From Candidatus Woesearchaeota archaeon (GTDB taxonomy: Archaea; Nanobdellota; Nanobdellia; Woesearchaeales; JABIAG01): DNA of 64,000 nt. Location: NCBI GenBank assembly GCA_018653365.1, contig JABIAG010000002.1, forward strand, positions 1-64,000, read 5' to 3'. A program made the translations under genes and the position numbers. The notes below the pieces were generated by a model. That model was not told the DNA's origin. It saw only the letters and a list, made by a program, of their open reading frames with translations, and did not search any database. Shown in pieces: positions 2 through 59,689 of this stretch (position 1 is the first letter of the stretch; each line of letters begins with the position of its first letter).

Positions 2-394
2 GGGGGGGGGTCTTGGAGTTATTCTTATGAGTATTGTGTTGATAGTTTTGTTTCTGAGTGTGAGGTTGGTGCGTCTTGTCCCGCACGTTTTTGGAATAAG
101 TATGCTCAAGTTTCTGTAGGGGATTGTTCACAAAATAGAGATTCTGATTTGGGTAATAGGAAGCATGAAATGGGCATAACTACCGGTTTTGATGTTAATG
201 GGGATTATGTTGATCATGTGGATTTTTGTATTAATGATACTTATGTTATGGAAGGTGTGATTAATGATTGTGTTGTTGAGTTAGTTCCTGTTGAGTGTCC
301 TGTTGGTTGCGATTCTGAATTTGGGGCTTGTGTTGGTTCTGTTCCCTCTTCTTGGCCTGAGACTAGTGGTAGTGAGGTGGTAGAATGCGATTAA
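2..394 (+). CDS. Cys-rich surface protein, C-terminal part (5' truncated by the window edge)
   Basis: Frame is open from position 2 (GGGSWSYSYEYCVDS...), upstream of the listed 149 start. It carries C-x-DSD-x-G and spaced-Cys motifs and overlaps the next start. Confidence 0.6.
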   Translation, partial: GGGSWSYSYEYCVDSFVSECEVGASCPARFWNKYAQVSVGDCSQNRDSDLGNRKHEMGITTGFDVNGDYVDHVDFCINDTYVMEGVINDCVVELVPVECPVGCDSEFGACVGSVPSSWPETSGSEVVECD

Positions 395-3300
395 AACTAT
401 TATTGCCTTTAATGTTATTATTGTTTGTTCCTTTTGTTTTGGCTGAGGATTTTGAGGTGCATCTTGACAAGGGGTGGAATATGTTTAGTATTCCTTTTGA
501 GTCTTTGTCTATTGATGATTTTAATTTGGCGTTGGCAGATGAGGGGTGCAGTATATCTTCTTCTGTTTGGGAGTATGGTGATGGGGAGTATGTTGATGTT
601 TCCGTTTTGAAGTCTGGTGAGGGGTATTGGGTTTATTCTGGTTCTGATTGTGATTTGGTTCTTTCAGGTGATGTTAATTTTTTTAAAAATGACCTTAGTG
701 TGGGTTGGAATTTGGTTGGTGCACCAGGGAAAGATTACACTTTTGCGGATCTTATGGGGAAGTGTGATGTTTCTTCAGTTATTTGGGATTGGGAGTATTC
801 TTCACAGGCAGGATTTTATGATTCAGTTTCGTTCTCTAGTGAGATAGTTCCTTTTTCGGGGTATTGGGTGTATGCTAATCATGATTGTACTTTTGGGGAG
901 TTGGTGAATAAAAAGCGTAATTATGGGGGGGTTTTTGATGCTGTTGAGGGTTGTAATGTTTTATATCCTGTTTATCAAGGGGATAGAACTGCGGATGAGG
1001 TAATTTCGCATTTGAAGAAGTATGCTTCTTATTTTAATGTTGATGGGGATAATGCAGTCACTCAAGATGATCTGAGATTGATTTATAATAAACGTAGAGT
1101 TTATGATAACCCTTTTTTTGGGGAAGAGCTTCGGTTGTCTCTTTTAATACCGAATTATTTAAAGGATACAATAAAGTTGTCTGCACAACAGGTTCTTGAG
1201 AATATTGAACGGTCTGAAAATCATTATGATTCAACTTCTGGTGACTCAGCTTTGGATGTAAATGATGATGGGCGTATGGATTTTTCAGATTTAATTTTGA
1301 TAAATCGTGCGTTTGTTACCTGTAATAAACTTCAGCTTCCTTTGAAGCAAGTTTTTGTTGTTTCTAATGAAAATTGGAGGGATGTGTTGTCTTTGGTTCC
1401 TGTTGCGGTTTGGTCTCAGCAAGAGGGGGATGATTCTGTTTGTTCAAGGGGTTATGGCGCTTCGGGTGATGTTTGTGTTTATCCTTTGCTTGTTTATCAT
1501 GAAGAAAAAGGGACGCAAACCTGGGTTCCTCAACCCTTAGATATAGCGCTTTATGATGAGAATGATGAGTTGATAGATTTGCTAGCAAGGTTAGTACTTC
1601 CTTCATCTTCTGTAGAAAAGAGCGCGATTCCTATTGGGGGAGATTATCGTTTAGATGTGAAGATCAATAGTTTAAGATCAGATATTTATGTTGAGAGTTT
1701 GGAGGTGCTGAATCTTCCTTCTCATTTAGTTCAGGAGTCACGTTTTATAGTTGGTGAAACGATTCTGAAGCGAGGGTCCGCATATGCTTATCCTACGATT
1801 AAGTCAATTTCTGAGCCTGATGATGCAATCACCTTAATTGATGCAGATTCTATTATTCATTTTATGCAACAGTATAGTGAAAAATCTCCGATTGATGGTG
1901 TTACCCTGTTTGGGGAGTCTCCTTTGGAGTTGGATGGGTTAATAACTGATGAGAATAACGAGTATGGTGCGAGGTTGGATGAGGATAGTGTGCAGAAGAT
2001 TTTGAAAAGGGCCGATCTTCCAGAGGGTGCCAATCCTGAGGATTATGTGTTATATGAAGATTTGATAAATTATTACTGGGAGTATTATGATTCTGTTGTT
2101 TTTGTCGAGGATGATTATGAGTTGGCTTTATTAGCTTCTACTTATGCTAGTTTAATCAATGTTCCGTTAATAATTGAGGGGACGGAACTGGATCAAGATA
2201 AGTATTTTGAAGGAAAACAGGTTATTTGTGTTGGAGTTGTTGGCAGGGTTTGTGATAGTGTTTATTCTTTAACGGATTTGCAAGAGGAGTATTTTAGTAA
2301 AACTCAAACTAATAAGTTAATTTTAACCAATCCTTCTGATTTAGATCTTAAAACGCTAGATGAATTAGAAACTGATAAATCGGAAGGGGATATAATAAAC
2401 TTGTATAGTAAAACTTCTTTGCTTGCACCGATTTTGGCAAGTGCAAAGCAGGAATTGATTCTTTCTGTTAATAGTGATGATTATGTTGTGGTTGATGATT
2501 ATTTGAAAGAGCAGTATGATAAGTATGTTGAGAGTGATATGAGAACATGTAATGCGGGGGAGGATTGTTCTTCAGGATTCGTGTTGGATAGTGTCCCTAT
2601 GTTAATATTTGAGAACGAGCTTACTTATGATTTTGTCGGGTTAAAAAAGCGCGCGGGTGTTGATCTATTAGGGGAAGCGATATTTTCTTCCTTACTTTTC
2701 TTTGATTGTGATGACTCTGTGCTTGAGGTGAGTCTATTTAATAATGATGTTCTGATTGGTTCAAAACTAACGGAGTGTCATCAGAGCTCGGAAGTATATG
2801 CATCAAAAGATTGGTATTATGGAGCATTTTATTTAAATGACCTTGAGGTTAACACGTTGGAACCGGGTACTTTAAGGTTAGAATTTGAAAATGCCAAGGT
2901 AGCTATTGATCAAGAATATGCCTATAATTATTTTCAGGTCAAAGCTGTTTACTTTATTGAAAATGTGTTACATTTTCAGGATTATGTGAGCTGTAAGTTT
3001 GATTACGCAGCAGATGGGACGTATGGTGTGAGAAATTGTATTGACCCTGAATTAGCACAATCAACTTCGGTTGAACAGCATGTTTCATCATCTGAAACAT
3101 TATTTAATTTTGATAATTTGGATGCCTCTAAAAAATATATGTTATCTGTTCAAGCAAGTGGACATTATCCTAGATCTGCACCTCTTGAATTATTTGGTAA
3201 TGATAATAAATTAGGGGAGCTAGTATTCGTAAGAGCGGCTGTGAGTGGGAGGTATGAAATTCCTCAAAGTATGATCGAGTCCGGTAATTTACAGGTCAAA

Positions 3301-4200
3301 TTCGTTCCAACAACTCCTCAGGGGGAGTATAATGTCAAGGTAAGTTTATCTGTTGTTGAGCCAACCTATTTAACTATATTTGCAGATGCAAAGGCAGTGC
3401 CTTATTCGAAAATTGATCGCATATACCGTTATGTTCTTAATTACGCTTTAGATCAAACTGAGTATGCAGATATTGATGGTGATTTTTATCCTGATCTTTA
3501 TACAGGTAGGATTATGGGCCTAACCACGTCCGATGTTTCAAGTTATTTGGCAAGAGATCTGTTTTATTCATCACTTGTTGACAATAATAAAGCCGCTTTC
3601 TTGGTAGGGAATGGATTTGATGATCATAATGGGGCTATGCAAAAGAATGGCAATGTTGCGCCCGTTTGGGCAAATTCGTTTAGTGCAGTGCAATATGCTG
3701 TGACCTGTTCTGAGGCAGATCCAAAAGGCGAGTCCTGTTTTCCTTATACTCCTCTCAATAAACGGGATGTTTGGAGGACTTCAATGAGCGGAAGAGAACT
3801 GATATTCTTAGCCAATCATGGTTCTACTTCAAGTGCAGGAATACATTCAGCATCAATACCTCCTCTTGAGAATAGCATAATCATTACTCACTCTTGTTCT
3901 ACTTGTGCCGCTAAACAATCAAGTGATTTTAAAGAGTTTGGAGCTCAGTCTTTTTGTAATAACGCTATTAGAAAGGGCGCAGTAGGGTATACTGGCGCAG
4001 TAAGCGTCTCTTATGGAAGTAATATTCAAAGAGAGATGATGAATAACCTTTATCTTGAAAATAAAGATTTGGGTCAGGCATTTGTAGCTTCTTATGAAGG
4101 AGCGACCGCTCGCTGGTGGAATGAGTTAATTGGGGATCCGACATTCAAGCTTAACCCTCAATACAATTTGTTGGAGCCTTTGGAGGTTGGATGGAAATGA
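385..4200 (+). CDS. Large secreted protein with dockerin/EF-hand-like motifs and a C-terminal C25 (gingipain-like) cysteine peptidase domain
   Basis: Signal peptide; LxxGWN(M/L) repeats; DVNDDGRMDFSDL Ca-binding motif; C25-type motifs LYTGRI, ANHG (His), HSCST (Cys), GAVGYTG, LIGDP. Confidence 0.7.
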   Translation: MRLKLLLPLMLLLFVPFVLAEDFEVHLDKGWNMFSIPFESLSIDDFNLALADEGCSISSSVWEYGDGEYVDVSVLKSGEGYWVYSGSDCDLVLSGDVNFFKNDLSVGWNLVGAPGKDYTFADLMGKCDVSSVIWDWEYSSQAGFYDSVSFSSEIVPFSGYWVYANHDCTFGELVNKKRNYGGVFDAVEGCNVLYPVYQGDRTADEVISHLKKYASYFNVDGDNAVTQDDLRLIYNKRRVYDNPFFGEELRLSLLIPNYLKDTIKLSAQQVLENIERSENHYDSTSGDSALDVNDDGRMDFSDLILINRAFVTCNKLQLPLKQVFVVSNENWRDVLSLVPVAVWSQQEGDDSVCSRGYGASGDVCVYPLLVYHEEKGTQTWVPQPLDIALYDENDELIDLLARLVLPSSSVEKSAIPIGGDYRLDVKINSLRSDIYVESLEVLNLPSHLVQESRFIVGETILKRGSAYAYPTIKSISEPDDAITLIDADSIIHFMQQYSEKSPIDGVTLFGESPLELDGLITDENNEYGARLDEDSVQKILKRADLPEGANPEDYVLYEDLINYYWEYYDSVVFVEDDYELALLASTYASLINVPLIIEGTELDQDKYFEGKQVICVGVVGRVCDSVYSLTDLQEEYFSKTQTNKLILTNPSDLDLKTLDELETDKSEGDIINLYSKTSLLAPILASAKQELILSVNSDDYVVVDDYLKEQYDKYVESDMRTCNAGEDCSSGFVLDSVPMLIFENELTYDFVGLKKRAGVDLLGEAIFSSLLFFDCDDSVLEVSLFNNDVLIGSKLTECHQSSEVYASKDWYYGAFYLNDLEVNTLEPGTLRLEFENAKVAIDQEYAYNYFQVKAVYFIENVLHFQDYVSCKFDYAADGTYGVRNCIDPELAQSTSVEQHVSSSETLFNFDNLDASKKYMLSVQASGHYPRSAPLELFGNDNKLGELVFVRAAVSGRYEIPQSMIESGNLQVKFVPTTPQGEYNVKVSLSVVEPTYLTIFADAKAVPYSKIDRIYRYVLNYALDQTEYADIDGDFYPDLYTGRIMGLTTSDVSSYLARDLFYSSLVDNNKAAFLVGNGFDDHNGAMQKNGNVAPVWANSFSAVQYAVTCSEADPKGESCFPYTPLNKRDVWRTSMSGRELIFLANHGSTSSAGIHSASIPPLENSIIITHSCSTCAAKQSSDFKEFGAQSFCNNAIRKGAVGYTGAVSVSYGSNIQREMMNNLYLENKDLGQAFVASYEGATARWWNELIGDPTFKLNPQYNLLEPLEVGWK

Positions 4201-37515: not shown

Positions 37516-37588
37516 TTTTCATAATAAAAACTTTTAAATACCCATTGATTCAATACTATATTAATGTTTTGTAAAAAGAGGTGTATTG

Positions 37589-39856
37589 ATGCCTGAGGAT
37601 AAGGAATATAGTTACGAGGTAGTGCGCGAAGGTTCTGATGTAATTCTTAAAGTGAACTATGAGAATGTACTGAGTCCGCCCTCTATAGAGGAGGATCCGG
37701 TTTGTATGTCTCGTACTATTAATATGCTTTTAGAAGCGGGTAAAGTTACAAAACTTATCTTTCAACAGAAACGTGATTTTGAGTATGATTTTGATCAGGT
37801 TCAAATTATTCAAGAGATCGCTTCATTATATAACAAGTTTGTTAAAAATCGAGATTTGATGACGTTTCTACTTGCAAAAGATAATCCTGCTTCAAAATCT
37901 AGACAGGCACTTTTACAAAAGTTTGTTTATAGTATAATGAAAAAGGATCCTTTGGGTGCTTATGTTTTAATTAGAAGGGAGAGAAGAGAACAGGAACACA
38001 TTCTTGAATCTGACCCAAATAATCTTGATAAAGAAACTATTCAAGAGTTTGCTAGAGTTTTGGATCATATGCTTGATGAGTTTGAAGCAACAGCATTAAT
38101 TAAACTTGCTCAACCTTATGTTATGGGATATAAGTTGGGTGATCGTTCAATTTATAAGAAACTTTTCCATCCTACAATTAAACCTGATTTTATGTTTACT
38201 AAGCTTATGGCTTCATATCCTCAGGAAGGGGAGGTTTTAGCTAATTATTCAATTGCTAATACGGATGTTACTATTTTTGAACTTCCTGGTTCTGTTAATT
38301 ACTTGTATCATATTGTTCCTCCTGAGTTTAAACTTACTGAAGCAAAGTATGATTTATTAGACACTGCTAGATCTATAATGGCAGAACACAAACCTACTCG
38401 TTCCGAGTTTGTTAATCCTGCATTGATGCGTGAAGTTTTCTATAATGTTGGTCATGACTTAATTGAGGAGTTAGCAAACAAGCAGGATGTAAGACTTAGA
38501 TTAAAAGAGATCGATGAACTGGCAGAAATCTTAGTTCGATACACTGTCGGTTTTGGGTTAATAGAAATCTTACTTAATGATCCTCAAATTCAAGATATCT
38601 CTATCAATTCTCCAATGGGTAATATTTCAATGTTTATTGTTCATGGCGAGTTTGGAGATTGTAAAACTAATATTATTCCTACTGCTTCTGATGGAGAGTC
38701 CTGGGCTACTAAACTGAGATTGATGTCTGGTCGTCCTTTAGATGAAGCTAACCCTATTCTTGATACTGAACTCGAACTACCAACAGTTAGGGCGAGAATT
38801 GCAGTTATTTCTCCACCGTTAAACCCGTCAGGGTTAGCGTACTCTTGGCGTCGTCACAGAATTAAACCCTGGACGTTACCATTATTTATAAAATATAAAA
38901 TGATGAATCCCTTGGCAGCAGGTTTGATGTCTTTTATTGTTGATGGTGCACGAACTATTCTTGTTGCCGGAACACGTTCCGCTGGTAAGACCTCTTTGTT
39001 GGGAAGTTTGATGGTAGAACTTATGAGGCGGACTAGAATTATTACTGTTGAGGATACTTTAGAACTTCCTTCAGATGCATTAAGAAAGTTTGGTTATAAT
39101 ATTCAACCCTTAAAAGTTGCTGCAGCTCTTTCTAAGGGGTCTAGTGAAGTTCCTGCAGATGAAGGAATTCGGTCTACTTTAAGGTTAGGCGATTCGGCTT
39201 TGTTTGTTGGTGAAGTTCGTTCCACTGAGGCCAAGGCTTTGTACGAAGCTATGAGGGTTGGAGCACTAGCAAATGTTGTTGCAGGTACAATTCACGCAGA
39301 CTCACCGTATGGTATTTATGATAGGGTTGTTAATGATTTAGGCGTTCCTAAAACCTCTTTTAAAGCTACTGATATTGCACTTGTTGCTAATCCAATTAGA
39401 AGTCCGGATGGAATTCATCGTTGGAGAAGGGTCACACAAATTACTGAAGTTAGAAAATTCTGGGAAGAGGATCCTTTGAGAGAAAACGGATTTGCTGATT
39501 TAATGAAGTATGACGCAACAACTGACGAATTACAAGAATCTGAGGTTTTAATTAATGGTGAATCTGAAATTCTTAAGGCAATTGCAGGTAATGTTAAGGA
39601 ATGGGCAGGTAATTGGGATGCAGTGTGGGATAATGTTTTGTTAAGAACTAAGATTAAAGAAAGAGTTGTCAAGGCCGCTGCACAAACGGGAGATGACAAC
39701 TTATTAGAAGCGGGTTTTGTTATTGTTGCAAATGATGAATTTCATAAGATTTCAGAAAGGGTTCGTGAGGAGGTTGGAGCTCTGGATTCAGATCGAATTT
39801 ATTTTGAGTGGGAGTCTTGGTTAAAAACTGCGTTAACTAAAAAGAAATTTTTATAA
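37589..39856 (+). CDS. Type IV pilus/secretion ATPase (VirB11/TadA/ArlI family)
   Basis: Walker A GTRSAGKTS, TVEDTLEL, VGEVRS.EA, GTIHADS; RBS GAGGTG. Confidence 0.92.
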   Translation: MPEDKEYSYEVVREGSDVILKVNYENVLSPPSIEEDPVCMSRTINMLLEAGKVTKLIFQQKRDFEYDFDQVQIIQEIASLYNKFVKNRDLMTFLLAKDNPASKSRQALLQKFVYSIMKKDPLGAYVLIRRERREQEHILESDPNNLDKETIQEFARVLDHMLDEFEATALIKLAQPYVMGYKLGDRSIYKKLFHPTIKPDFMFTKLMASYPQEGEVLANYSIANTDVTIFELPGSVNYLYHIVPPEFKLTEAKYDLLDTARSIMAEHKPTRSEFVNPALMREVFYNVGHDLIEELANKQDVRLRLKEIDELAEILVRYTVGFGLIEILLNDPQIQDISINSPMGNISMFIVHGEFGDCKTNIIPTASDGESWATKLRLMSGRPLDEANPILDTELELPTVRARIAVISPPLNPSGLAYSWRRHRIKPWTLPLFIKYKMMNPLAAGLMSFIVDGARTILVAGTRSAGKTSLLGSLMVELMRRTRIITVEDTLELPSDALRKFGYNIQPLKVAAALSKGSSEVPADEGIRSTLRLGDSALFVGEVRSTEAKALYEAMRVGALANVVAGTIHADSPYGIYDRVVNDLGVPKTSFKATDIALVANPIRSPDGIHRWRRVTQITEVRKFWEEDPLRENGFADLMKYDATTDELQESEVLINGESEILKAIAGNVKEWAGNWDAVWDNVLLRTKIKERVVKAAAQTGDDNLLEAGFVIVANDEFHKISERVREEVGALDSDRIYFEWESWLKTALTKKKFL

Positions 39857-53345: not shown

Positions 53346-54298
53346 ACGCAACAGAATTAACAAAGGAATTATTAAAAATTCCTTCCCCTTCTGGGGAGGA
53401 AAAAGAAATAGGTAACTACTTAGTTAATAGATTGAAAACTAATTTTGAGGTAACAACTCAAAAGGTTGATAATAATTTCAATATTTTTGCAATTAAGGGT
53501 AACCCAAAACTTGTTCTACAAACGCACATAGATACTGTTCCCAAACAATTGGAGTTAAAAGAGGATGTAGGATTTGTTTATGGTAGGGGTGCCTGTGATA
53601 CTAAAGGAATTATTGCATGTATGGTTCTTGCTGCTGAAGAAGCTGTCAAGGTAGGGAAAACTAATTTTGGATTGGTTTTTACAGTATGTGAAGAGACTAA
53701 TTTTGCAGGAATTAAGCAAGCAGTAACGCAGTTGGATCCTGAATTGGTGATTGTTGGCGAACCAACTGATTTTAAGGTTGTTTATGGACAAAAAGGAATA
53801 TTTTCTTTTAAGATTGAGTGTAAGGGTAAATCTGCTCACAGCGCAATGCCAGAAAAAGGAGACTCTGCAATAATCAAATTGTTGGATGAGTTAGATAGAA
53901 TAAGAAAAATTAAACTTCCAGAGAACGAATTAGGTAAGACTACCTTGAACATTGGGACAATCAAGGGTGGAACAGTAAACAATGTCATTCCTGATTATGC
54001 AGAAGCAGATATTTCAGTTCGAACTACTGTGAGTGCAGAAGAGATAAAAGAATTGTTGGGAATTAAAGAAGCAGTTAGTTTAGATCCCACCATAATAACT
54101 GACCAAGAATTACTCGACAAGTTTTCATATGATAAAATAACTGTTCCTTATTTTACGGAAATGTATTTTTGGAAGAAAGCAATTGTGTTTGGTCCAGGCA
54201 AAATAGAATTTGCACACAGTGATGATGAAAAAATCAGTAAGACTGATTTGGAAAGGGGAAAAGAAGAGTATTTGCAAATTATTAATTTATTGTCCTGA
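53342..54298 (+). CDS. M20 family metallopeptidase/deacylase (ArgE/DapE-like)
   Basis: SPSGEE, THIDTV, GRGACDTKG, CEE, VGEPT, SAHS, AHSDDE. Confidence 0.9.
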   Translation: MNATELTKELLKIPSPSGEEKEIGNYLVNRLKTNFEVTTQKVDNNFNIFAIKGNPKLVLQTHIDTVPKQLELKEDVGFVYGRGACDTKGIIACMVLAAEEAVKVGKTNFGLVFTVCEETNFAGIKQAVTQLDPELVIVGEPTDFKVVYGQKGIFSFKIECKGKSAHSAMPEKGDSAIIKLLDELDRIRKIKLPENELGKTTLNIGTIKGGTVNNVIPDYAEADISVRTTVSAEEIKELLGIKEAVSLDPTIITDQELLDKFSYDKITVPYFTEMYFWKKAIVFGPGKIEFAHSDDEKISKTDLERGKEEYLQIINLLS

Positions 54299-55762
54299 AC
54301 AAGCCTGGCGTAATTTTTCATCAAAAATATTCCCCATTTTTATGTAGTGGTTGCCCTCTTCTTCAGGTAGTGGAATTTCCATAATTAAATAATTAAGGGC
54401 ATCAATTCCTGATCTAATTGCTGCTTGGACATCCCTAGTTCTTCCCTGTCTTTGATAATATGCTGCCTTATCCATTGCTCTTTCTACTGTGGCAGCTAAG
54501 AACTCATGTAAAAAACTCTCTTCTATTTCACCTCCCTCTGTTATCACGTAATCAGCATATCTTTCGGCAGCCTCAACTTTTTCTTCCATTGTTTTGTAGA
54601 ATGGAACAAACCCGAGTATGTGAGCTGCTTCTGCAGCATATGTTGCGAGTCCTTTATCGGCAGTATCTAAAAACATAATTCCTCCCTCTTCTAATGCCAT
54701 TAGGTTGTCTGTGTGTGGGTCACGACTAACACATCTTCTTCCTTGTTCTATTGTATTGGCTAGTGTATCTGTGTGTTCAACAAGGCGTGCATCAAATTCT
54801 GCTGCATGTTTTCTTGCTTTTGTTAGATAATCATAGGGTGTAAAACTTTCTCTGGGAGTGTGTACGTTGGCTTTTGCTAGCTCTCTTAATGCATTGTCAT
54901 ATGTGTCTTCACTTAAGGCATTAGCTTTTATTAATTCAGTTAGCACTTCTCCTTCTGCAAATTCCATAACATAATATTGTCTATTTCCTGTTGTTAGTAA
55001 AATTATTTCTTGTGGGACTCTTACTATTCCTTCACTTATTCTTCTTACCTGGAGTTCTCGTTCAAATCCCTCTTCACTCTCTTTAACGGCGAGGGTTCCA
55101 ACCTCTCCCTGTCCCACTGTGCTTATTTTTGACATTGCGATTCGGTAGGTTGTGAATTGTCTTAGAAAAACCCCTTTTCTTATCATTTTTTCAACCATTG
55201 ATTGGAGTAGTGGTTGAGTGATATCGTTTCCAAGTTCTAATGTTCTGTAAATTCCAAGTAATGCTTGGAATGCCATCCAGTCTTCATTAGTTTCGTCTTC
55301 TGTCATAGCAACTAATCTTTTTATCATGCTTCTATCCTCTCTTAGAAAATAGTTTGTGTAGAGGAGTGCAGCATTTATTTTTCCCTGATTTATGGCCTCG
55401 TCTAATGTTCTTTCAGCTTTTCTGGGATCTGTTTCAAAATAGTGCAGTGCTAGTGCTTGGTATGTTTCTGGCCTGGCTTCGCCCTGTTCTTTTAGTCTTT
55501 CTAATACTTCTAGTGCCATTTCTTTGCTAAAACCTTCATCATCGTCATCGTACATTGTTAGTCGTAATTGTGCAGGAAATTCCATTCCTCTATCTCCCAA
55601 TAGGATTAGGTGATCAAGATCGTGTATTATTTCTTCACGTGTTGCGGAACCTCTTTCGATTTGTTCTTGTAATTCTGTAACTTTTTGTAGGCCTTCTTTA
55701 TTATGTTGTCGCATTCGAGATATTTCTCTTGCTGTTTCAGAATCAATTGGACTTTCATTCAT
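54287..55762 (-). CDS. Helical-repeat plus APH/kinase-like phosphotransferase
   Basis: AVKE, RE, YYVME, RDPHTDN catalytic loop, FLDT; TPR-like N-terminus. Confidence 0.65.
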   Translation of the reverse strand: MNESPIDSETAREISRMRQHNKEGLQKVTELQEQIERGSATREEIIHDLDHLILLGDRGMEFPAQLRLTMYDDDDEGFSKEMALEVLERLKEQGEARPETYQALALHYFETDPRKAERTLDEAINQGKINAALLYTNYFLREDRSMIKRLVAMTEDETNEDWMAFQALLGIYRTLELGNDITQPLLQSMVEKMIRKGVFLRQFTTYRIAMSKISTVGQGEVGTLAVKESEEGFERELQVRRISEGIVRVPQEIILLTTGNRQYYVMEFAEGEVLTELIKANALSEDTYDNALRELAKANVHTPRESFTPYDYLTKARKHAAEFDARLVEHTDTLANTIEQGRRCVSRDPHTDNLMALEEGGIMFLDTADKGLATYAAEAAHILGFVPFYKTMEEKVEAAERYADYVITEGGEIEESFLHEFLAATVERAMDKAAYYQRQGRTRDVQAAIRSGIDALNYLIMEIPLPEEEGNHYIKMGNIFDEKLRQACSGQ

Positions 55763-55882
55763 GCATTTGGTTAATTTCCTGGTTATTATAAAAATTTGTA
55801 TATACTTTAATGAATTTCACCACTCAAAGGTAACACATAACCAAAAACTTTAAATACTAATTATGCTTTACTGGTCTATAAT

Positions 55883-56893
55883 ATGAGACAAATGCTTGCT
55901 AAATACAGTGGTGCACTAAGAGATTCTTTTAATTATGCTAGACGTACTTCTGTTTCTGATGCTGGTAAAGACCTTAGTTCTTATGTTGGTCGTGTTGCAG
56001 GTGATGCTAGATCTTATGTTTCTGATGCACGGGATTCTATTGGTGAATTTTCTAATGGATTTTTTTCTAATGGATTTGTTAGCTCGATGAGACGTTTAAG
56101 TGGTAATCCTATGCAATCTTTGGCTTTTGCTGGTGGTTATGCTCAACGTATGCCTGAAGATAGACAACAAGAACTTGCTGGTCGTGGTTATGATGCTTTA
56201 AGAGCTCAACACGGTAAAGGTGCGGGTAAAGCACTTGAAAAACTTCAATCTCAACATAAAGATTTCACACTTATAGAATTACTTGTAGTAATTGCAATTA
56301 TAGCAATTCTTGCAGGTATGTTACTTCCTGCTTTGGCTGGTGCTAGAGAAAAAGCAAGATCTTCACAATGTATTAATAATTTGAAACAGCAAGGACTTGC
56401 TGCAACAATGTATGCTCAAGATTATGAAGGAATGTTCCCACAAGCTTCTGGAGCAGACCCTTATGTTACGCCTACAATTAGATTGCGAGCGGGTGCTACA
56501 GCAATTATGGGGGCTGGAAGACTTATTGATGGAAATTATGGTGTTGGGCCAGAACAATTTGAATGCCCTTCTAATTCTAATAAGTGGTTTAGGGGAGGAA
56601 AAGTGGTAAGTAATTGGGGGAGTTTAGCAACTGTTGATAATGCTTACATGTGGACTGGTATGCGAAATATCCGAAGGGATAGATCTCCAACTAGTTCTGT
56701 TTTGGCTTTTGATGCCAACGTTCTTGGTGGCGGAAGTGCAAGTAATGGTCATCCTGGTGGGGTTAATTTAGTTCGTGCAGATGGTGGAGCACAACGTGAG
56801 AACGATACTGCGGGAATTTCTCGTCCATTGACTAGTTCTAGTACTAATATGGCTGATGCTTCAGATCGTTTACAAACCCAATTTGGTCAATAG
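55883..56893 (+). CDS. DUF1559/H-X9-DG prepilin-type protein with a 127-aa N-terminal extension
   Basis: [53 protein letters not shown]. Confidence 0.88.
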
Positions 56894-56937
56894 TTGGCTT
56901 TCTAAATAAAAACATTTAAATAGTTCTTTTCTGATAC

Positions 56938-56980
56938 GTTAAACATATTAACCTAATTTAACAGGTTAAACTTGTTTAAC
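56938..56980. promoter_or_regulatory. Operator-like array of TTAA(A)C half-sites, including the palindrome GTTAAAC-tt-GTTTAAC
   Basis: Five TTAA cores 8-10 bp apart, between the TATA box and ATG 56982. Confidence 0.6.
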
Positions 56981-56981
56981 T

Positions 56982-57140
56982 ATGAAGTCAAATAAACTAA
57001 TTAAAAATCTTGATGAACAAACCTGGAATAAGTTTGTTGCTTTCTGTAAGCTAAAGAATGTTAAGGTAGCTCCTGAACTCGAAATCATAATAAATACGCA
57101 TTTAGATAAGAATCTAAAACAATTGTTCAATAAAAAATGA
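56982..57140 (+). CDS. Small ribbon-helix-helix-type regulator (52 aa; absent from the ORF track)
   Basis: MKSNKLIKNLDEQTWNKFVAFCKLKNVKVAPELEIIINTHLDKNLKQLFNKK; ATGA overlap with the next gene. Confidence 0.7.
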   Translation: MKSNKLIKNLDEQTWNKFVAFCKLKNVKVAPELEIIINTHLDKNLKQLFNKK

Positions 57141-59689
57141 AAAATAGAATACTTGCATCACTAACCTTGGTTTTTGCACTTTTCGCAGTGTTTGCATTTT
57201 ATAATCAGGGGATTACGGGGTTTGTTGTTAATGTGGGGGCATGTAATTTTAATGCAGATAGTGTGGGAGAAACATACACTTTATCAGGAAACCTGGGAAC
57301 TTGCTCTGGGGAAAATGCAATTAATGTTTTAGCTAATAACATTATTGTTGATTGCAATGGTAATGAGATCATTGGAAATGGGGTGGCGGGGAGCGCAATG
57401 GGTATAAATGTGGGTGCTAGTCTGACGGGAATCACCCTCAAGAATTGCATAATTAAAGATTTTCTTTTTGGTATTTCAACTGCGGGTTCGGGGGTTTCTA
57501 TTGAAAACGTTCAGATTTATGATGATGATATGAGCTCTTGTTATACTGGAGGAAATCCCACTGAAGTTGGAGATCTTAATTACTGCGGTGCCGAAGCTGA
57601 TCTGCCGGTAACAGACAATGCTCCAACTATAACATCTTTAGATTTTCCTCCTGATGATGAAACTATTATTAATGTTCCTGTTGATTTTAATTTTACTGTT
57701 TGGGATGATTTTAATGTTTCTACCTGTGACTTGTGGTCGAACTTTAGCGGTACGTGGGAATTAAACTCTTCCATTGCTCCTGAGAATAATCACTCTGAAA
57801 CGTTTAATTTTACCCTATCGCCTTTGGATGGCGAATATATTTGGAATGTTAATTGTACTGATAATGCAACAACTCCTAATTCTGTTTGGTATGCTGCAGG
57901 TAATTATTCAGTAACTATCAACACAACTGATCCTCCTCCAACCATTACAGAATTAACTCATCCCTCTTCAACGTTTAGTGCGATTGCCGAACCTTTGGAT
58001 TTTAATTTCACTGTTCATGATAATTGGAATGTTTCAAATTGTTCTTTGTGGACAAATATTTCAACTGTTTGGGCTGAAACTGCGTTTAGAACTATTGGTA
58101 CTAATGTTTCTGCCACATATAATATTTCGTTGGTTGTTGGTGTGGGAGACTATATTTGGAATGTTAATTGTACTGATAATGCTTCTAATTCTTCGTGGTA
58201 TGTGTCTAATGCTTCAGTTGTTATTTCTGATCCTGCTCCAACATTAAGCTTATATTCTCCAAGTTCTGCTTCAACAGTTTCTGCAGTTCCTATGAATTTT
58301 ACGTTTAATGTTTCTGATAATTATAATGTTTCGAGTTGTTCTTTATTTGCTAATTTTAGTGGAGCTTGGAGTCAGAATGATTCTTTGGAAATTCAAAATA
58401 ACACTCAAGGTATTTACAACTTGACTCTTTCCCCGACTGATGGAATTTATTTGTGGGGTGTTAATTGTTCAGACAATGCATCTCAAACAACTTGGTCTGA
58501 TAATTATACTGTTACTGTCAATGCAGTGGATGATTATCCTACGGTGACTCTGGCTTCGCCAAGTAATGCAGCATCAATTACTGCATCGTCAACTACTTTG
58601 CAAATTACAACTTTGGATGATTATAATGTTACGGCTTGTACTTTGTGGACTAATTTTAATGGTTCTTGGGCAGCTAATGAAACCCTGAATGTTAGTGTTC
58701 CTGCTTCCACAACAACGTCATTTACTGTCTCTCCAGCATATGGTACTTATACTTGGAATGCTAATTGTACTGATAATGCTTCTCAGTCTTCTTGGGCAGC
58801 AGATAATTTCACATTTGCTTTACAACAAGCTACAACAACTAGTAATACTGGGGGAAGTAGTGGGGGGGGAAGCGATGACGATGATGAGGAAGAGGTTACT
58901 CCTGCTCTTGTCATTCCTGCTGTAGTTCCTGTTGAAGAAGAGGAAGAAGAAGTTGAAGAAGTCATTGAGGAAGTTGTTGAAGAAGAATTGTTTGCTCCGC
59001 CTGTTGAGGAAGAGGAAGCAGAAAAACAAGAATCAATATCAAATGCAAAAAGGTCAAAATCAGAGATAGTTGAGGTAGAGTGTGATCCTGCAGAGAGTAA
59101 TTGTGATGAATGGTTTGATAACTTAATAACAAAGATGGATCGTACTTTGGATAAGGTTGATTTGACAAAGAATGTGACTTTTGATAACGAAACTAATACT
59201 ACTAAAGTCGCGATTAGTATTGTTCCTGAAGAGGATCTTGAAGATTTCAGGTATTATCAAAGTATTCCGAAGTGTATGGCAATTTATGTTCACTTAGTTA
59301 AGTTTAAGAATACTGATTTCGAGGTATTAAAAGACGATCCTTTGATTGTTTGGAGTTTTGCAAATGTTCAAAAAGGTGAAGAATTAGATCTTGGTTTTGA
59401 GGTTATGGGTGACATTCCAGAGAATTGTTATGAATTCATTTCCGAACTTCTTTATGAAGAACAAGAAAAGTTTTCTGGTAAGCATATGTTTGGGTTGATC
59501 ACTGGTTTGTCAGTTCTTGGTTTGGTTGCTTTGGGTATTACGTATTCTTCTAAGTATTCACACCATTTAGTTGCTGCTAAGAATGTTGGAACTAAGTTCT
59601 TTAAGAAATCATCTAAGTCTGAGATAAAAGTACCTGCTAAGGTTGATAAAAAGATCGATATCATCAAAGAAAGGATGAAACAATTATAA
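57137..59689 (+). CDS. Surface glycoprotein with four Ig-like repeats and a C-terminal TM anchor
   Basis: ITGFVV N-terminus, beta-helix-like segment, four repeats ending Y.W..NC.DNA, dense NxS/T sequons, GGSSGGG plus acidic linker. Confidence 0.8.
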   Translation: MKNRILASLTLVFALFAVFAFYNQGITGFVVNVGACNFNADSVGETYTLSGNLGTCSGENAINVLANNIIVDCNGNEIIGNGVAGSAMGINVGASLTGITLKNCIIKDFLFGISTAGSGVSIENVQIYDDDMSSCYTGGNPTEVGDLNYCGAEADLPVTDNAPTITSLDFPPDDETIINVPVDFNFTVWDDFNVSTCDLWSNFSGTWELNSSIAPENNHSETFNFTLSPLDGEYIWNVNCTDNATTPNSVWYAAGNYSVTINTTDPPPTITELTHPSSTFSAIAEPLDFNFTVHDNWNVSNCSLWTNISTVWAETAFRTIGTNVSATYNISLVVGVGDYIWNVNCTDNASNSSWYVSNASVVISDPAPTLSLYSPSSASTVSAVPMNFTFNVSDNYNVSSCSLFANFSGAWSQNDSLEIQNNTQGIYNLTLSPTDGIYLWGVNCSDNASQTTWSDNYTVTVNAVDDYPTVTLASPSNAASITASSTTLQITTLDDYNVTACTLWTNFNGSWAANETLNVSVPASTTTSFTVSPAYGTYTWNANCTDNASQSSWAADNFTFALQQATTTSNTGGSSGGGSDDDDEEEVTPALVIPAVVPVEEEEEEVEEVIEEVVEEELFAPPVEEEEAEKQESISNAKRSKSEIVEVECDPAESNCDEWFDNLITKMDRTLDKVDLTKNVTFDNETNTTKVAISIVPEEDLEDFRYYQSIPKCMAIYVHLVKFKNTDFEVLKDDPLIVWSFANVQKGEELDLGFEVMGDIPENCYEFISELLYEEQEKFSGKHMFGLITGLSVLGLVALGITYSSKYSHHLVAAKNVGTKFFKKSSKSEIKVPAKVDKKIDIIKERMKQL

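Follow-up and report, generated by a model that had tools for sequence, protein, structure and literature searches.

The locus and its gene

We analysed a 64,000-nucleotide stretch of the genome of a Candidatus Woesearchaeota archaeon (contig JABIAG010000002.1, positions 1 to 64,000; called the window throughout) and describe here one gene within it, that of protein P0001, in which a bacterial-type pilin helix and a DUF1559 head follow a long N-terminal extension. Genomes are labelled with G numbers (G000 is the present one), proteins with P numbers, and loci or contigs with L numbers. The gene, its promoter and the parts of its product of 336 amino acids (aa) are the following:

55843-55856, plus strand: A/T-rich promoter element aaaaactttaaata, resembling a transcription factor B recognition element and TATA box (BRE/TATA), 26 nt 5' of the ATG, read from the sequence
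55883..56893, plus strand: leader-extended DUF1559 pseudopilin-like gene (P0001), ATG start, 336 aa
55883..56263, plus strand: N-terminal extension, aa 1-127, hydrophilic and rich in Ser, Ala, Gly and Arg, presumed cytoplasmic (composition and AlphaFold2, AF2)
56264..56335, plus strand: bacterial prepilin-type hydrophobic helix, aa 128-151 (F+1, E+5; family models and alignments)
56342..56476, plus strand: aa 154-198, which match the DUF1559 model and lie on the long alpha-1 helix in the pilin-fold head (Pfam and AF2)
56750..56785, plus strand: H-X9-DG motif, H290 to G301, in its literal spacing (translation)

By six-frame and genome profile searches, this gene is both the sole N_methyl match and the sole DUF1559 match in the genome. 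The archaeal BRE/TATA signal claimed in a preliminary description of this DNA proved to be nearly invariant in an independent relative, the contig L112 from the Joint Genome Institute (JGI), which encodes P0003: from roughly -60 to -10 the two contigs hardly differ, although the proteins are only ~54% identical. Since the promoter lies 26 nt ahead of the ATG, the mRNA would be leaderless or nearly leaderless and would start at the long open reading frame (ORF).

The leader aligns from Met1 with those of P0003 and P0004 (67% identity to P0004 over the leader), and we conclude from this, from the conservation of the TATA element in L112 and from the lack of a usable internal start that the leader is translated. 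M90, the nearest in-frame alternative start, was ruled out because the promoter is conserved before Met1, because the leader aligns from Met1 and because P0005 has no M90. M90 is not conserved, a start there would still leave a leader of 38 aa, and no in-frame ATG, GTG or TTG occurs between M90 and F128. As estimated from base composition, an open frame of 127 codons would arise by chance in DNA of 34% G+C with p ~7e-5.

A resident gene of an archaeal chromosome

The host is an archaeon. Its genome, 1.09 Mb in 3 contigs and ~95% complete, carries archaeal small- and large-subunit rRNA genes on contig C1, and the contig of the window carries the TFB, Kae1, RFC and SMC genes, of which TFB, Kae1 and RFC lie within the window. 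The G+C content at third codon positions (GC3) of the P0001 gene is 0.155 (1st percentile) against a genome mean of 0.24, and its codon fit to the preferences of the genome is at the 98th percentile of genome ORFs, a range that includes several ribosomal-protein genes recognised by eye from their N-termini; the earlier remark on host-like codons ending in T or A was correct. Both flanks of the gene are syntenic with G003, a genome of another genus in the same family, and L112 has the same order of promoter, gene, small downstream ORF and surface-protein gene. Host-like codon use, the synteny with G003 and the arrangement on L112 show the gene to be a resident of the archaeal chromosome and not part of a chimera.

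Two other readings of the gene, as an artefact of assembly or binning and as a functionless relic in decay, are very improbable. Contamination does occur in related data: prepilin-type matches in G392 (L015) and G086 (L018) were dropped because they lie in DNA of 68% and 58% G+C within low-G+C archaeal bins, and they are probably bacterial contamination of those metagenome-assembled genomes. A leader with a ratio of nonsynonymous to synonymous substitution rates (dN/dS) near 1 would likewise suit a relic. The preliminary description had itself named a chimeric assembly as the finding that would overturn its reading, and four observations speak against this: an even G+C content across the window, codon use more host-like than that of 98% of ORFs, synteny with G003 on both sides, and the matching arrangement on L112. 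In addition, TFB lies on the same contig, homologues are carried on contigs of 351 kb (G003), 575 kb (G565) and 731 kb (G176), the frame is unbroken, and an independent contig shows promoter and start codon to be conserved.

A bacterial-type pilin helix and a DUF1559 head

The translation places a bacterial N-methylation motif at aa 128 with Asp at -1, as described earlier, and the NCBIfam model TIGR02532 (IV_pilin_GFxxxE) supports this with 21.5-22.4 bits at a cut-off of 16.3. The Pfam N_methyl model, PF07963, scored 21.1 bits on the whole protein (cut-off 21.2) and 24.6 bits in the six-frame genome search. P0001 has the Phe at +1 (F128), the Glu at +5 (E132) and the run of ~20 hydrophobic residues (aa 128-151) expected of a prepilin, preceded by Lys at -2 and Asp127 at -1 in place of Lys/Arg-Gly. 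F128, T129, L130, E132, L133 and L134 are invariant across all aligned archaeal and bacterial homologues.

Directly behind the helix, Pfam PF07596 (DUF1559, SBP_bac_10) matches with 41.7 bits (gathering cut-off 23.3; 38 bits in the genome search), the match being limited to model positions 3-46 of 268 (aa 154-198). Short bacterial-type members of the family are similar in the head domain and align over 33-60% of the query with E values of 1e-17 to 1e-23, and C163, K168, Y177, D180, C228 and D300 are invariant in alignment A1. The H-X9-DG motif that had been noticed near the C terminus is present as the literal H290-G301 spacing, with H290, N295 and D300 in conserved columns of the family alignments. 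The corresponding model TIGR04294 (cut-off 19 bits) reported no match to P0001 even at E <= 10, and among the archaeal homologues it gave 13.4 bits for G565 and 12.9 bits for G003, both below 19.

The AF2 model used here was built from 125 aligned sequences and has a predicted local distance difference test score (pLDDT) of 77; an earlier model from 7 sequences (pLDDT 40) was not used. In it, a helix of 50 residues (130-180) leads into a small sheet; pLDDT is ~90 at 130-180 and 210-230 and mostly ~60-90 in the rest of the head, with dips near 190-210 and 280-290. Wherever a structural match extends over the mature part, it is to a pilin or pseudopilin: PilA4 (6xxd, Z 6.5), EpsG (4lw9, Z 5.9), a type IVb pilin (9iuf, Z 5.5) and PilE (4noa, Z 5.1). 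Foldseek returned no match against the PDB at E <= 0.001. A search of the PDB by sequence found no DUF1559 head structure; the family profile meets solved pilins only via the N-terminal helix. P0001 is thus like GspG/EpsG and the type IVa pilins in fold, a long N-terminal helix with a small beta-sheet head, at modest Z scores. It differs from GspG in falling far below the cut-off of the equivalog TIGR01710 (32.8 bits, N-terminal helix only, against 88.85), and its genome is without bacterial type II secretion system (T2SS) or type IV pilus (T4P) machinery. A viral origin was rejected because PHROG matches cover the pilin helix only.

Substitution rates were compared between the P0001 and P0003 genes by the NG86 method, in which strong codon bias depresses dS and so inflates the ratios. 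With this reservation, dN/dS was 0.30 for aa 128-180, 0.67 for the head (dN 0.51) and 0.93 for the leader. By this measure the pilin helix is the constrained part of the protein, and leader and head both change fast.

Family distribution and origin

We scanned 185,579 species genomes for bacterial affinities with alignment A2, using the conserved helix as the pattern. The best 80 loci are all bacterial, mostly from Verrucomicrobiota, Lentisphaerota and Planctomycetota, and together with the 68-74 DUF1559 paralogues known per planctomycete genome (PMC10632474, PMC2754498) they bear out the earlier statement that the family is expanded in Planctomycetes, Verrucomicrobia and Lentisphaerae. Below the three leader-bearing relatives, all homologues listed are proteins of 185-442 aa with a prepilin-type N terminus, and those with a named source come from Omnitrophota, Victivallales or Verrucomicrobiia. 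N_methyl matched 8 bacterial control genomes and none of four archaeal ones. A 2023 paper, quoting InterPro, describes DUF1559 as apparently restricted to Planctomycetes (PMC10632474).

Over the mature part, P0001 is 35-45% identical to short bacterial-type forms from Planctomycetota, Verrucomicrobiota, Lentisphaerota and Omnitrophota. It has in common with these DUF1559/H-X9-DG proteins the helix, the block AREKAR...C..NLKQ.G.A..MY..DY, a conserved head Cys and the C-terminal motif H...N....DG. By contrast, P0001 is found in an archaeon, and the archaeal version is present in one copy per genome.

Archaeal relatives were sought with an A2 profile of archaeal-type proteins in 401 genomes of the order and then in 401 of the phylum. 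Strong matches in the order were obtained in G000, G001 (same genus), G003, G165, G176 and G079, so that leader-extended homologues are patchy and present in ~1.5% of the sampled order genomes. The search of the phylum further yielded G565, which belongs to another order of the class, and G499, whose DUF1559-like match is weaker; a weak match in G501, an unpublished genome, was not used. A broad, vertically inherited archaeal clade, which the preliminary description had regarded as contrary to its reading, was not seen in this narrow set. As the small archaeal set is syntenic between two genera, the transfer predates at least the host family.

A tree of the mature domain (110 rows, 209 columns), in which 65 of 107 inner branches were unsupported, groups G000 with P0003 (98*) and places G565, G165, G176 and G003 together with four short-leader metagenome proteins in a starred clade. 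The tree splits the archaeal rows, and a constraint to monophyly was borderline rejected (p = 0.045 in the approximately unbiased test). Given this poor resolution, we name neither a number of transfers nor a donor phylum beyond the group formed by Omnitrophota and the Planctomycetes-Verrucomicrobia-Chlamydiae (PVC) bacteria; a PVC or Omnitrophota-like bacterium is the most likely source. Taken together, the sequence evidence indicates that the gene is an old acquisition by archaea from bacteria which was domesticated as a single-copy surface protein. The earlier proposal of an old, ameliorated cross-domain transfer thus holds as regards amelioration, which codon use shows to be complete, and needs correction in that the gene is not alone and belongs to a patchy archaeal set.

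The bacterial affinity also allows a reading that concerns the purpose of the protein and is compatible with either model of its maturation set out below: the PVC-type head could dock onto, or interfere with, the T2SS or T4P of PVC or Omnitrophota bacteria on which the archaeon lives. Such mimicry, also raised in the preliminary description, would suit a family otherwise typical of PVC bacteria, a head that evolves as fast as an interaction surface would, and the pairing with an adhesin-like protein; yet a pilin helix normally enters an assembly from the membrane of the cell that makes it and not from outside another cell, and DUF1559 has no known function even in Planctomycetes (PMC10632474). 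We consider it improbable.

N-terminal extensions of the archaeal proteins

The P0001 leader has a net charge of +6 and is all-helical in the AF2 model (H2-21, H24-57, H63-72, H76-89 and H92-124, at pLDDT ~50-80). Structural matches to it found with VIA-align were discounted as generic long helices. By alignment and profile it is homologous only to the leaders of P0003, P0004 and P0005; in a word-indexed search of 5.8 billion proteins P0004 was the sole leader match, and kinship with P0003 and P0005 emerged from alignment and profile. The leader matched no Pfam family, gave nothing usable in the ESM Atlas, and had no relative among JGI metagenome contigs in a search by leader pattern. A comparison of aa 1-127 with the whole genome likewise revealed no second locus. 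With no other match in genome or databases, the extension is not a shared targeting signal, the role that the preliminary description had suggested for it.

At least two leader classes can be distinguished. Class A comprises G000 (127 aa), P0003 (120 aa), P0004 (119 aa) and P0005 (148 aa), and class B comprises G001 (281 aa), G165 (363 aa), G079 (372 aa) and P0124, in which a class B leader precedes a pilin helix and a head of another kind. The leaders of G003, G176 and G565 are 143, 147 and 63 aa long. Homology between the two classes was not detectable (hhalign probability 3.5%), and a common ancestry is unsupported; the class B profile found 3 proteins only among 1.84 billion representatives, one of them P0124. 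Among 115 bacterial-type homologues, the median leader is 8 aa, and the few long ones have an internal Met or likely miscalled starts.

Extensions of ~40-80 aa were also seen at three other loci, L016 (G109), L017 (G254) and L019 (G323), before bacterial-type G/MTLIELL or G/FTLIEL helices (slash between leader and helix) with heads other than DUF1559. It may be more widespread in this group for a bacterial-type pilin helix to follow a long leader.

A conserved neighbouring surface protein

Two ORFs follow the P0001 gene:

56982..57140, plus strand: 52-aa ORF between the pseudopilin and surface-protein genes, its stop overlapping the next ATG (ORF list)
57137..59689, plus strand: partner gene of 850 aa with signal peptide, sequon-rich repeats and transmembrane anchor (sequence)

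The 850-aa protein consists of a signal peptide, a beta-helix-like N-terminal part, repeated sequon-rich modules, an acidic linker, a conserved C-terminal domain (aa 646-800) and the anchor. A homologous membrane-anchored protein of 745-1047 aa is encoded by the next gene downstream, on the same strand, in G003, G176, G079 and G565, and in G000 and L112 by the gene that follows the 52-aa ORF; the partner in G565 matches only that of G176, and weakly (E 7e-6). The partner C-terminal domain, which together with the anchor spans aa 646-850 (59072-59686), has no sequence match in Pfam, NCBIfam or PDB. It occurs in 113 of 401 sampled order genomes, where it ends many large proteins (open frames of ~100-5100 aa), and this tally takes in the unpublished genomes G004, G212, G135, G186 and G210. 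It seems to be a common module for surface anchoring in these archaea that has so far lacked annotation. A search beside 81 bacterial DUF1559 loci did not reveal the partner. As the domain is common in the order and absent beside the bacterial genes, the partner would be native to these archaea and the pairing would have arisen within them. The conserved pairing fits a role at the surface or in adhesion.

Both the 52-aa ORF of G000 and its TATA-like element aaaacatttaaatag are conserved in L112 (window 56900-57140; L112 1640-1915), and the element is similar to the pseudopilin promoter aaaaactttaaatac. The ORF has only a weak PHROG match.

Upstream of the promoter, on the minus strand (54287-55762), lies a divergent gene for a 491-aa protein with a sub-threshold APH/kinase-like match (22.7 bits against 23.2) and no counterpart adjoining the pseudopilin gene in other archaeal genomes. 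Elsewhere in the window, a plus-strand gene (385-4200) encodes a 1,271-aa protein with a C-terminal Peptidase_C25 (gingipain-like) domain (E 2.7e-15).

Cleavage site and filament machinery

Processing of prepilins requires Gly, Ala or Ser at -1 (PMC4371748), and archaeal class III leaders are typically 6-12 aa long according to reviews. P0001 has Asp127 at -1, and its motif starts at residue 128 instead of following a short basic leader. When compared with the archaeal class III pattern (Lys/Arg at -2, Gly/Ala at -1, leader of 3-12 aa), P0001 fits only in the Lys at -2. In the host itself, class III-like N-termini have leaders of mostly 3-12 aa, and the clearest of them end in Lys/Arg-Gly; the scan that found them admitted only Gly, Ala and Ser at -1 and so informs on leader length only. 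A run of ORFs with such short N-termini (e.g. MKKRG/, MNKRA/) was observed on contig C1 at ~56.4-92.0 kb, one of them 7,512 aa long, and represents the pilin-like array of the host itself.

In the archaeal DUF1559-type set, the residue at -1 is Asp in G000 and G001, Asn in P0003 and G165, Lys in P0004, Pro in G003, Gly in P0005 and G565, and Ala in G176 and G079; Gly is likewise found in P0124 and G499. All archaeal copies carry Lys or Arg at -2 or -3. Among the close relatives of P0001, the residue at -1 is Asn or Lys, and Gly in one only. The 115 bacterial-type homologues (alignment A5) have Gly in 59 cases, Ala in 11, Ser in 9 and another residue (Ile, Glu, Arg, Lys etc.) in 36, with Asp in a single one. 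Judged from these alignments, the canonical cleavage site is unexpectedly loose in the DUF1559 family.

The genome encodes one A24 peptidase (C1:211185), of archaeal type and without the methyltransferase domain. Candidate filament genes in the window are:

37586..39856, plus strand: sole T2SSE-family ATPase above the Pfam cut-off, candidate type IV filament motor, 16 kb upstream of P0001
39858..42101, plus strand: adjacent 747-aa protein with a weak T2SSF (platform) match of 18.4 bits, below the cut-off (profile search)

A separate Pfam search gave no match for the 747-aa platform-like protein at E <= 0.01.

Discussion

We propose that P0001 is an N-in/C-out protein which is left uncleaved in this lineage and acts together with the neighbouring surface protein, a model to which we give an even chance of being right. 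The pilin helix (aa 128-151) would insert into the membrane N-in/C-out, as class III signals do, so that the extension would stay in the cytoplasm and the DUF1559 head would be displayed outside. The leader's net charge of +6 and the pilin fold of the head agree with this topology. Because of the Asp at -1, with Asn or Lys and in one case Gly in its relatives, P0001 is probably not cut by the single A24 peptidase. The short leaders of the host's class III-like proteins and the missing methyltransferase domain of the peptidase also speak for this. It would thus remain a bitopic membrane protein and would work at the cell surface with the adjacent adhesin-like protein in attachment or surface organisation. 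Processing may persist in those family members whose -1 residue is Gly or Ala.

Alternatively, P0001 could be a pro-pilin. In that case the A24 peptidase would remove the long leader despite the Asp at -1, and the subunit would join a filament built by the machine encoded at 37.6-42.1 kb; the mature DUF1559 protein would then probably be a minor or tip subunit and may tie the large adhesin to the filament, by analogy with bacteria, where PilY1 is held by minor pilins. We regard processing of this kind as possible and, for P0001, rather doubtful. Several of our observations favour it and at the same time weigh against an uncleaved protein. No archaeal copy departs from F+1, T+2, L+3 and E+5, a degree of conservation beyond what a plain membrane anchor would need, and this suggests that a peptidase or an assembly platform still recognises these proteins. 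Gly or Ala at -1 combined with Lys or Arg at -2/-3 is found in 9 of 15 archaeal bacterial-type pilin-like proteins (10 of DUF1559 type, G499, P0124 and 3 other pilin-like ORFs), and cleavage may be the ancestral state. Since 36 of the 115 bacterial-type homologues lack Gly, Ala and Ser at -1, this residue is a weak predictor in the DUF1559 family. The near-neutral dN/dS of the leader is as compatible with a disposable pro-peptide as with a functional domain, and fast evolution is to be expected of a pro-region. The partnership itself is also less than strict, as the pseudopilin gene of G001 and G165 is without an adjacent partner, and the partner in G000 and L112 has a promoter of its own and is separated from the pseudopilin gene by a small ORF. 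A pro-pilin is further consistent with the pilin fold modelled for the head, with the presence in the genome of a single A24 peptidase, a single T2SSE ATPase and a platform-like gene, and with the reported flexibility of PibD-type enzymes (PMC4187195). The reasons for our doubt are that Asp, Asn, Lys or Pro at -1 in G000, G001, G003, G165, P0003 and P0004 falls outside the Gly/Ala/Ser rule, that leaders of 63-372 aa far exceed the 6-12 aa of archaea and the 3-12 aa of this host, and that the gene lies outside any pilin or machinery cluster, 16 kb from the ATPase.

P0001 would have the same topology as the archaeal class III proteins, the substrates of PibD, FlaK and EppA, which include pilins, archaellins and the sugar-binding proteins of the Sulfolobus bindosome, and it resembles EppA substrates in Lys at -2 and an acidic residue at +5. 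It differs from all of these in the length of its leader, in Asp at -1 and in its bacterial-type helix. In bacterial type IV pili, a minor-pilin set is paired with an adhesin (FimU-PilVWX with PilY1), and as in this and in modular pilins, the pilin-like gene described here adjoins a very large adhesin-like gene in an arrangement conserved across genomes. However, the partner of P0001 has its own signal peptide and a C-terminal anchor and no sequence relation to PilY1, and there is a single pilin-like gene instead of a minor-pilin set, so that the likeness is one of layout only.

A more far-reaching version of the pro-pilin idea would be a class of pro-pilins with giant leaders in archaea of the group named for Diapherotrites, Parvarchaeota, Aenigmarchaeota, Nanoarchaeota and Nanohaloarchaeota (DPANN), in which a cytoplasmic pro-domain of 60-370 aa precedes a bacterial-type class III signal and is cut off by the A24 peptidase at the face of the membrane. 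We think this unlikely. The similar long leaders before G/FTLIE- or G/MTLIELL-type helices in three more archaeal genomes hint that the phenomenon could be wider. If such a class exists, the commitment of each subunit to the surface would free a cytoplasmic protein and so couple surface assembly to the cytoplasm. It is equally conceivable that the leader fits a foreign pilin to the archaeal machine, and the displayed PVC-type head might engage bacterial partners.

In our literature search, we found no paper on DUF1559 or bacterial-type pilins in DPANN archaea and none on pilin-type signals with extensions of such length. DUF1559 is among the largest protein families without known function in Planctomycetes, and the single-copy archaeal versions, tied to one neighbour, offer a far simpler setting in which to learn what these proteins do. 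Our results show that a bacterial-type class III signal can persist for a long time in an archaeon. Every archaeal copy has gained a long N-terminal extension, which poses the question of whether it is cut off and, if so, by which enzyme. For the ecology of DPANN archaea, the P0001 locus adds one more candidate module for the cell surface or for attachment.

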